The notes under the pieces were generated by a model. It did not search any database. It was not told the origin of the DNA and was given only the letters and a program-made list of their open reading frames with translations. From an uncultured Clostridium sp. (GTDB taxonomy: Bacteria; Bacillota; Clostridia; TANB77; CAG-508), in contig CAMMVE010000002.1 in NCBI GenBank assembly GCA_946500265.1, positions 758 through 64,757 of the forward strand: DNA of 64,000 nucleotides. The letters are read 5' to 3'. Positions 49,630 to 51,334 of the stretch are shown here, in pieces. Each line of letters opens with the position of its first letter. The stretch's first letter is position 1. Both the position numbers and the translations under genes were made by a program.

Positions 49630-49995
49630 TTATTTTTCATTTTCTGCTTCAGTTCGTTGGCCTTTTTTATTGCTTCCTTTATTTCCATTTTTCATTTGGT
49701 CCTCCTGTTCTTTTGGAATATTTGTATATAATTGTTTTTCAATAAAATTCTCCCAGTATGGACTATCTGTAAAAGTTACTTCAAAGAATATTTGATTATT
49801 TTGGTTTCCTAATATTGATTGATATCCATTCAATACTCTCCACTTTTTCTTTTGTTCATCCCATAAAGGTTTACCCAATAATAATAATATTTGTACCCAA
49901 CCTAATTTTTGAGTATTTACTTTTTGCTTTTCATTACTGTCAATTTTTTTATGAATTTTGTTTGATTTTGTCTCATCTTCTTTTTTCTTTGGCAT
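49630..49995 (-). CDS. hypothetical protein with basic termini
   Basis: 121 aa ORF with no motif recognised. Confidence 0.4.
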   Translation of the reverse strand: MPKKKEDETKSNKIHKKIDSNEKQKVNTQKLGWVQILLLLGKPLWDEQKKKWRVLNGYQSILGNQNNQIFFEVTFTDSPYWENFIEKQLYTNIPKEQEDQMKNGNKGSNKKGQRTEAENEK

Positions 49996-50021: not shown

Positions 50022-50822
50022 TTAAAATAATCCCCATTCTGCAAATTTTTCAAATCCACCTATAACATTTATATATTTTTTTGCAATTTCAACTATTTCT
50101 GAGTATGGTTTTCCATCAATCTCTGTATCTCCTATCGCACAGCATAAATTTACTTCTTTTCTTGTTTCTTGTGCTTTTAAAAAAGCATATATATTTACAG
50201 AAACATCAGCCTTACTTAAATCCTTTCCGTGAAGTCCTCCACCTGTTACACTATCAGCCATATCACTTCCAATTTTTCTGTTAGTAGCCCCTGTGTCCAC
50301 ATTTATTCCACCAGTCCAATCCCCTAATGGATTTACTGTAAATTTATAATCAAATTTTTTTAAATATTTTAATAATTCTTCTGTTTTTGCATTACTTTGA
50401 CATATTATAAAATGATCTTTATTTAATATGTATTTTCCATCACTTTTATATTTACTATATAAATCTCTGGCAATATTTGATATTTCACATTGCTCTTTTG
50501 TTAATGGTACACCTTTAAATATCCCATTATCGCCACAACGAATCTCATTTTCTTGATTTTTTGCTAAGTGCTCATCTTGTTTTGCCATTATTATTTCTAT
50601 TTTTACATTATTTGTTTCAGCAATTCTATATACTATGTCAAATATATCAGTTTCATTAAATATGACCGAACTTTCTATAATTATTTTACAGTTTCCATGC
50701 CCTATTAACACTTCAACCGCTATTTTAGGATTTTCCTGTATTTTATATCCTAAATCTACTATTGCTCCTGCTATTCTATCAGCTACTTTATCTGGATGCT
50801 TTGGATTTACTTTTTCTATCAT
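50022..50822 (-). CDS. compact S-adenosylmethionine synthetase (MetK/MAT)-like protein
   Basis: 266 aa. KHPDKVADRIAGAIVD (MetK GHPDKIADQISDAVLD), CGDNGIFKG (GAGDQGLMFGYA), VNPLGDWTGG...NRKIGSDMADSVTGGGLHGKDLSKADVSVNIYAF ([31 protein letters not shown]). About 120 aa shorter than bacterial MetK. Confidence 0.65.
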   Translation of the reverse strand: MIEKVNPKHPDKVADRIAGAIVDLGYKIQENPKIAVEVLIGHGNCKIIIESSVIFNETDIFDIVYRIAETNNVKIEIIMAKQDEHLAKNQENEIRCGDNGIFKGVPLTKEQCEISNIARDLYSKYKSDGKYILNKDHFIICQSNAKTEELLKYLKKFDYKFTVNPLGDWTGGINVDTGATNRKIGSDMADSVTGGGLHGKDLSKADVSVNIYAFLKAQETRKEVNLCCAIGDTEIDGKPYSEIVEIAKKYINVIGGFEKFAEWGLF

Positions 50823-51334
50823 TTTCTACCTCCTAATATCAAATCTAGTTTTTTGTCTATATTTCTTATTGTATTAAAAAAGCTCTCTTGTGCATTATAT
50901 GAATGCACAGTCATTGTTACTATTGTCTCCTTTAGTCCTTCTATTTGTTCTTTATATTGGTTTCGTAATGCTTTTATAGCAAATTCGTGTTGCTGCTTTA
51001 ATTCTTTATTTTCTTTTCTTAATTTACAGAATTCATCAAATCTTATTTCATTTAATTTATTTATGTTTATTTCCTCAAGTAATCCCGCTTCATCTAAATC
51101 ATAAATAAATCTGCCTTTTTTCTCTATATATCCTATCCATTCTTGATCTGCTGCATCTTGATATAATCTAGTTTTTACGATTCTATCTTCTTTGTTAATT
51201 TCAATAGTCTCAAAATATGTCCAGCCTTTATTTGTGTCTTTCATTACTTTTTTTGAGTAATTTCCTTTTGCATCTTGTTTATATCCAAATTGTTCTAACT
51301 CCTTTAAATCCCTTTCAATTTTAATTCTATACAT
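50819..51334 (-). CDS. hypothetical early protein
   Basis: 171 aa, ATGA-type overlap with the next gene. Confidence 0.45.
   Translation of the reverse strand: MYRIKIERDLKELEQFGYKQDAKGNYSKKVMKDTNKGWTYFETIEINKEDRIVKTRLYQDAADQEWIGYIEKKGRFIYDLDEAGLLEEININKLNEIRFDEFCKLRKENKELKQQHEFAIKALRNQYKEQIEGLKETIVTMTVHSYNAQESFFNTIRNIDKKLDLILGGRK

Follow-up and report, generated by a model that had tools for sequence, protein, structure and literature searches.

A trimmed MetK-like protein encoded near two DNA methyltransferase genes in a Firmicute prophage

Why should a phage carry its own homologue of S-adenosylmethionine (SAM) synthetase (MetK, or methionine adenosyltransferase, MAT), and can such a protein be functional when it is far shorter than the cellular enzyme? 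The question arises from a single open reading frame in the window, by which we mean the whole 64,000-nucleotide stretch of DNA that was analysed. A first-pass annotation had described the product as a strongly shortened, phage-borne MetK homologue lying near two DNA methyltransferase genes. It had offered opposite readings of this protein, as a source of SAM for self-methylation or for countering host defences, and as a non-catalytic decoy or inhibitor of host MetK.

Sequence, predicted fold and active site

The reading frame occupies positions 50022..50822 of the minus strand and encodes 266 amino acids from an ATG start, with an AGGAGG ribosome-binding site 8 nt 5′ of that start. The MetK motifs reported earlier are indeed recognisable in the product, as HPDKVAD (residues 9-15), CGDNG (residues 96-100) and RKIGSD...GGGLHGKDLSKAD (residues 182-206). 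Compared with E. coli MetK (384 aa; reference sequence taken from NC_000913.3) the protein is 31% shorter, in agreement with the previous description of it as roughly a third shorter, and its identity to cellular MATs is 24-28%.

Curated family models recognise the protein to different degrees. The Pfam N-terminal domain model S-AdoMet_synt_N (PF00438) scores 36.2 bits, just above its cutoff of 33.1, while the C-terminal domain model PF02773 stays below its own (13.5 versus 25 bits) and the Pfam search gave no match to the central domain model PF02772. The NCBIfam MetK equivalog TIGR01034 reaches 40.9 bits, far short of its cutoff of 309.4. Because neither this model nor the full PF00438+PF02772+PF02773 architecture passes its curated cut-offs, the protein does not qualify as a MetK equivalog by score. 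Its full length matches phrog_1569 (“unknown function”) with an E value of 3.9e-72, residues 1-266 falling on profile positions 4-337 of 346.

PDB sequence searches returned only MATs below an E value of 0.1, with the best match at 2.8e-09 for the single sequence and at 1.8e-18 for the family profile. When the family alignment was compared with E. coli MetK by hhalign, a probability of 98.5% and an E value of 3.2e-15 were obtained over 266 aligned columns, colinear over MetK residues 8-343. Searches of Pfam, NCBIfam and the PDB and the hhalign comparison all led to MAT rather than to an unrelated family, and MAT/MetK is confirmed as the sole family related to the window protein by sequence profile and fold.

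Structure prediction, one of the checks proposed in the first-pass annotation, yielded a confident three-domain MAT fold. The AlphaFold2 model was built on a 34-sequence alignment and is very confident (pLDDT 95.7, pTM 0.93). Every listed Foldseek match to it in the PDB is a MAT, with E values of about 1e-19 to 1e-17 and query-normalised TM scores of 0.68-0.79, the best match having an E value of 4e-19 and a TM score of 0.79. Among the BFVD viral models, Foldseek found no significant match (best E value 1e-3, TM score 0.24).

In the model, the first unit consists of strand 2-5, helix 10-28, strands 34-41 and 44-51, helix 57-68 and strand 74-80. The second follows with strand 100-104, helix 109-124, strands 129-134 and 137-142, helix 147-154 and strand 160-163, and the third with strand 177-179, helices 184-191 and 205-220, strand 224-228 and helix 240-254. 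The window protein is thereby predicted to contain the three pseudo-symmetric beta-alpha-beta-beta-alpha-beta domains of the MAT fold. Since the order of secondary-structure elements reproduces all three MAT units, the loss of a whole domain is ruled out, and the AlphaFold2 model retains all three in trimmed form. As modelled, each domain is pared to its core: the protein lacks surface loops, a portion of the long beta-hairpin and ~40 residues at the C-terminus. The last of these losses follows from the alignment, which stops at about E. coli residue 343. The solved MATs matched in the PDB searches are all 377-430 aa long, and hence no MAT this small has been solved.

The catalytic and ligand-binding positions of E. 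coli MetK can be followed in order along the protein. Corresponding residues (window protein = E. coli) are H9=H14, D11=D16, K12=K17, E37=E42, E50=E55, Q82=Q98, D98=D118, W169=F230, D176=D238, R182/K183=R244/K245, K200/D201=K265/D266, K204=K269, D206=D271 and I230=I302. Across 120 close clusters, 21 counted positions are at least 99% conserved, so that the loss of catalytic residues considered in the first-pass annotation is not what careful alignment reveals. The same 21 ligand positions are kept in 27-32 of 32 divergent full-length representatives, and I230, which lies outside this count, is near-invariant in the 34-sequence alignment. The MAT signatures GHPDK, GAGDQG and D-x-G-x-T-G-R-K take the forms KHPDK, CGDNG and DTGATNRK, the fourth motif is GGGLHGKDLSKADVS, and the functional residues inside the signature motifs are conserved family-wide. 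That ligands contributed by both half-sites of the composite active site have been kept speaks for a catalytic protein rather than a decoy, and the retained methionine and adenine pocket residues favour ordinary SAM as the product.

The strand that follows the N-domain helix opens with a near-invariant D128-G-K130, in the topological place of E. coli D163-A-K165, whose D and K are ribose/phosphate ligands. MAFFT, BLAST, HMMER and hhalign disagree on this correspondence, with aligners pairing the segment with the E. coli DDGK hairpin. From the secondary-structure topology of the model, together with the invariance of these residues, D128-G-K130 is taken as the putative equivalent of D163/K165. 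In the gating-loop region the family conserves a sequence of its own, QDxxLAxNQ, unlike that of canonical MATs. A few divergent members of the family (38-43% identity) lack several ligands, and these proteins may be inactive.

The prophage and its methylase genes

From position 1 to ~19 kb the window is host chromosome of a spore-forming Firmicute, with genes for a SpoIVB peptidase, TruA and an MFS transporter. The prophage runs from an endolysin gene (20396-21406) to beyond 64 kb, with every gene on the minus strand. The earlier description of a phage-borne MetK homologue is borne out, with the qualification that the element is a prophage in a Firmicute chromosome. A 133-aa ORF at 19965-20366 on the plus strand, which matches MutS domain I only (E value 3.8e-12), abuts the endolysin gene on the minus strand. 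The prophage may have inserted into the 5′ part of host mutS, and its other junction lies beyond the window.

In the direction of transcription, RecT and MBL-fold genes and many small ORFs are followed by the 171-aa ORF, MAT, the 121-aa ORF and the gene for a 193-aa putative regulator. After a gap of 241 nt come ParB, the C5 methylase, the ParB-N6/N4 methylase, TerS, TerL and portal. The features from the ORF preceding MAT to the large terminase subunit are as follows.

50819..51334, minus strand: ORF of 171 aa without family match, overlapping the MAT start (ATGA)
50022..50822, minus strand: mini-MAT, 266 aa, PHROG 1569 (Pfam, PHROGs, PDB, Foldseek, hhalign)
49630..49995, minus strand: ORF of 121 aa, function not assigned, 26 nt downstream of MAT
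48861..49442, minus strand: 193-aa phrog_1558 protein, with weaker matches to transcriptional activator/regulator PHROGs
48809..48837, minus strand: sigma-70 promoter-like site, TTGACA-17-TATAAT, 12/12 (consensus match only)
48071..48619, minus strand: stand-alone ParB N-terminal-domain protein, phrog_620 (profile match)
47004..48074, minus strand: C-5 cytosine DNA methyltransferase, PF00145 (E value 1.7e-44)
45836..47038, minus strand: ParB_N-fused N6/N4 DNA methyltransferase, PF02195+PF01555 (E value 1.3e-32; phrog_498, E value 2.4e-173)
45066..45821, minus strand: putative small terminase subunit, from its position and N-terminal HTH-like sequence, without profile match
43682..45127, minus strand: large terminase subunit, readable only via three +1 frame changes

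The MAT start codon overlaps the stop codon of the 171-aa ORF, an arrangement that places MAT inside an early/middle operon. Both DNA methyltransferases named in the first-pass annotation are confirmed and lie on the same strand as MAT, and the order MAT, ParB, C5, ParB-N6/N4, TerS and TerL makes up a MAT-methylase module. The earlier statement that MAT and the methylases share a transcription unit direction holds for the strand, but in this phage the genes probably do not form one transcription unit, as they are ~2-3 kb apart with three ORFs and the promoter-like site between them. This site falls in the 241-nt gap between the regulator gene and the ParB/methylase/terminase block, and is a candidate promoter of the methylase-packaging unit. 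Such an arrangement suggests that MAT belongs to the upstream (replication/middle) unit, while the methylases head an apparent packaging/late unit. Judged by its family matches, the 193-aa phrog_1558 protein is likely to be a late-gene regulator.

Several other features of the element were observed. The TerL reading frame passes through frames 0, 1, 2 and 0, and independent metagenome contigs (100%, 98.3% and 85.7% identical) show the same split. A sequencing artefact was therefore rejected, and the split could reflect either a defective prophage lineage or recoding. The MBL-fold protein (58715-59455, minus strand) adjoins RecT (59455-60471). Its resemblance to the anti-Pycsar protein Apyc1 is sub-threshold (25.3 bits versus a cutoff of 50), and it is more likely to be a recombination-associated nuclease partner of RecT than an Apyc1.

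The minus strand also carries a diversity-generating retroelement, comprising a TR (24105-24217), a VR (24366-24478), an RT-like ORF (23386-23973) and a tail-fibre gene (24356-26194). One copy of its 113-nt direct repeat falls in the tail-fibre ORF, at the 3′ end, and the other in the spacer before the RT-like ORF; at all 17 mismatches between them, the spacer copy reads A. With just 195 aa and a weak match to RVT_1 (19.9 bits), the RT ORF may be fragmented.

Co-occurrence with methylases in related phages, a further check proposed at the outset, was assessed in two independent samples. The first comprised 80 loci from IMG/VR, 70 of which had at least 3 kb of downstream sequence, and the second 80 loci from GTDB genomes, where homologues of either the ParB-N6/N4 or the C5 methylase were counted. 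A ParB-N6/N4 methylase homologue is found on the same strand within 3 kb downstream in 50/70 IMG/VR loci and is adjacent (within 200 bp) in 31/70. The corresponding numbers for methylase homologues in the GTDB set are 43/69 downstream and 35/69 adjacent. Across both sets, 62-71% of loci have a same-strand methylase within 3 kb downstream and 44-51% have one immediately adjacent, counts that are descriptive because they cover MAT-positive loci alone. A methylase upstream of MAT is rare (6 loci in IMG/VR and 4 in GTDB). The ~30-40% of loci in which a limited homology and motif search detected no methylase represent an upper bound, since the motif search for other methylase types was crude.

The conserved order and adjacency of MAT and methylase genes are clear, and the ParB-N6/N4 methylase is a recurrent partner of mini-MAT in other phages. 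In Javan105, an adenine methylase gene begins 13 bp downstream of MAT and is followed by an overlapping cytosine methylase gene, and Gardnerella phage AB1 has MAT and then a DNA modification methylase. The surroundings of the module vary in other respects. The upstream neighbour of MAT encodes a DUF4406 protein in some copies and the 171-aa ORF in others, and one related contig (L007, 9234-10585) has an Amidoligase_2 and GGACT (gamma-glutamyl cyclotransferase-like) pair between MAT and the ParB/methylase block.

Distribution of the family

The short proteins form a very large family. A word-indexed search yielded at least 8,000 clusters at 90% identity, all significant, and single clusters of this kind occur on up to 522 contigs. 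An exhaustive search of 50%-identity representatives gave 207 clusters below an E value of 1e-30. Full-length members are 258-337 aa long, with a median of ~288. The best-scoring representative, P0121 (582 aa), resembles the N-terminal part of mini-MAT over its first ~196 residues and has no Pfam match in the remainder; either a fusion or an artefactual frameshift may account for it.

Matches occur in at least 556 IMG/VR stretches and in at least 532 stretches of GTDB species-representative genomes. The hosts are mostly Clostridia, Erysipelotrichaceae, Lactobacillales and Peptoniphilaceae-type bacteria, together with some Prevotella/Segatella and Treponema MAGs. Twenty-five GenBank phages carry the gene, including Streptococcus Javan prophages, Gardnerella AB1, Terrisporobacter phages and gut Oscillospiraceae/Acutalibacteraceae phages, and most of these copies are annotated as ‘hypothetical protein’. 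In the assembly collection, 59 blocks list a protein identical to that of the window (21 contigs inspected).

When the 16 kb around the gene was compared with GenBank phages at the nucleotide level, the sole match was ~130 nt at the 5′ end of MAT (85.6% to S. constellatus Javan phages), an indication that this segment is strongly conserved. The same search revealed no close sequenced relative of the 16-kb region among GenBank phages. Longer relatives of 320-415 aa were considered as a bridge to canonical three-domain MetK. This idea was rejected, as they match the N-domain model alone, which makes their extra length a lineage-specific insertion and the clade a separate MAT subfamily.

As far as searchable texts go, neither enzymology nor a structure turned up for the mini clade, and literature searches for a truncated methionine adenosyltransferase in phage or for an anti-defence SAM synthetase returned nothing relevant. 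The family itself has already been noticed and is under-annotated. The window gene adds one more member to it, so that novelty is low to moderate and the value of the finding lies in prompting biochemistry.

Possible function and comparison with known systems

The best explanation for these observations, to which we assign a probability of roughly 0.6, is that the protein is an active minimal SAM synthetase, expressed together with replication genes, that feeds phage DNA methylation before packaging. Its conserved residues suggest that mini-MAT would make SAM from ATP and methionine, and by analogy with all MATs it would do so as a homodimer whose active sites form where the two subunits meet. 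Expression within the phage replication/middle operon would raise SAM production in the infected or induced cell. The orphan ParB-N6/N4 and C5 methylases, encoded just upstream of the packaging genes, could then fully methylate many new genome copies before these are packaged, and the modification would shield progeny DNA from restriction in the next host.

Methylating about a hundred 45-kb genomes at frequent sites takes, by rough estimate, ~1e4-1e5 SAM molecules. This demand is comparable with the SAM pool of a cell, and supply could therefore be a bottleneck. Type I/III restriction and BREX, however, use SAM as a cofactor too, and more of it is not automatically good for the phage, a point that counts against the proposal.

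A more specialised form of SAM supply can be imagined, although we regard it as quite improbable. Mini-MAT might be a dedicated partner of the ParB-fused methyltransferase, either by handing SAM or a SAM analogue directly, within a joint complex, to the methylase as it sits on phage DNA, or by escaping the product inhibition and regulation to which host MetK is subject. Together, MAT and methylase would constitute an autonomous ‘epigenetic protection cassette’, operating whatever the SAM status or SAM-directed defences of the host, and built on the smallest functional MAT scaffold known.

Expression of MAT in the lysogen could alternatively alter SAM-dependent host physiology (methylation, polyamines, AI-2, aggregation or biofilm) and benefit the host-prophage pair, with phage methylation being secondary. 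Deletion and complementation of the MetK of S. agalactiae prophage 12/111phiA have been linked to autoaggregation, chain length and glycocalyx, although complementation was partial and confounded by secondary mutations (PMC8223999). The element studied here is likewise a prophage in a chromosome, it may be defective given the three frame changes needed to read TerL while its MAT is kept intact, and the recurrence of the identical protein in the assembly collection favours the same view. We nevertheless consider such lysogenic conversion unlikely. Translational coupling ties MAT into the lytic-cycle operon, with the replication module on one side and the packaging module on the other; the gene neither occupies a moron position nor has its own promoter, and a role in host physiology leaves the conserved adjacency to methylases unexplained.

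Slightly less plausible again is a change of specificity or a role in SAM homeostasis and counter-defence, whereby mini-MAT would bypass host MetK when SAM supply collapses or is attacked, or would make a SAM analogue for neighbouring transferases. The distinctive gating-loop sequence is consistent with this view, as is the separation of the clade from cellular MetK, with longer relatives matching the N-domain model only. The pocket residues corresponding to E. coli E55, Q98, D238, K269, I302 and F230 (aromatic W in the phage family) are kept, however, the partner enzymes belong to ordinary N6/N4 and C5 methylase families, and a SAM-depleting defence is not implicated at the locus.

Very improbable is the decoy of the first-pass annotation, a non-catalytic, dominant-negative inhibitor that would trap host MetK in dead heterodimers or sequester it, much as T3 SAMase polymerises MetK (PMC8406200; bioRxiv 10.1101/2023.02.27.530186): this precedent for phage targeting of MetK and the beta-sheet dimer face retained in the modelled fold speak for it, but a decoy needs no full set of Mg, K, triphosphate and methionine ligands, yet the catalytic and substrate-binding residues of both active-site halves are essentially invariant, and lower SAM would starve the phage’s own adjacent methylases.

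If mini-MAT is active as a SAM synthetase, it would represent the minimal catalytic core of an ancient universal enzyme, with ~265 rather than ~380-400 aa, and may be the smallest natural MAT as well as an extremely widespread one. It would be useful for enzyme engineering, in the synthesis of SAM and SAM analogues, and would help to separate the parts of MetK needed for chemistry from those that serve regulation or oligomerisation. Activity would also mean that temperate phages of gut, oral and streptococcal origin, a very large group, invest in the cofactor for their own DNA methylation. This would bear on restriction evasion, on host-range prediction and on the reading of ‘auxiliary metabolic genes’, because phage metK would serve epigenetic protection and not sulfur metabolism.

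With cellular MetK (E. coli, 384 aa; Ureaplasma MAT 6rk7, 377 aa), mini-MAT shares the three-domain fold and the catalytic and substrate-binding residues. It differs from solved MATs in being ~31% shorter, with trimmed loops, hairpin and C-terminus, and in being phage-borne and methylase-linked.

The idea that a phage SAM synthetase supplies self-methylation is not new. In S. pyogenes Phi1207.3, described in 2014, orf29 encodes a SAM synthetase, orf32 a ParB-methylase and orf33 a C5 methylase, upstream of the terminase, and the authors proposed that the methylase draws its methyl donor from the synthetase (PMC4260502). The module of the window has the same content and the same position upstream of the terminase. 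The orf29 product is a canonical-type protein of 353 aa with strong matches to all three Pfam MAT domains (PMC4260502), whereas the window protein belongs to a separate clade of 260-290 aa that is recognised through the N-domain model only.

The MetK of S. agalactiae prophage 12/111phiA was reported in 2021 to have a ‘135-aa truncation’ and was studied genetically (PMC8223999). This prophage resembles Javan-like prophages of S. constellatus and S. equi (PMC8223999), and Javan-like phages of these two species carry the mini-MAT family at 62-69% identity; the likeness of the 12/111phiA protein itself is drawn from its description. That work addressed host phenotypes such as aggregation and biofilm, and not enzymology or phage methylation (PMC8223999).

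Passages of Kieft et al. list metK genes of gut and environmental phages, describe their conserved MAT motifs and purifying selection, and figure S. suis phages with metK and dcm (bioRxiv 10.1101/2021.01.05.425418). In these passages viral metK is framed in terms of organosulfur and sulfide metabolism rather than DNA methylation, and its short length is not discussed. Finally, the SAM lyase (SAMase) of T3 is, like mini-MAT, a phage protein that acts on the host SAM pool, and it acts on MetK as well. Unlike mini-MAT, it has an unrelated fold, destroys SAM and inhibits MetK, thereby avoiding SAM-dependent restriction and BREX.
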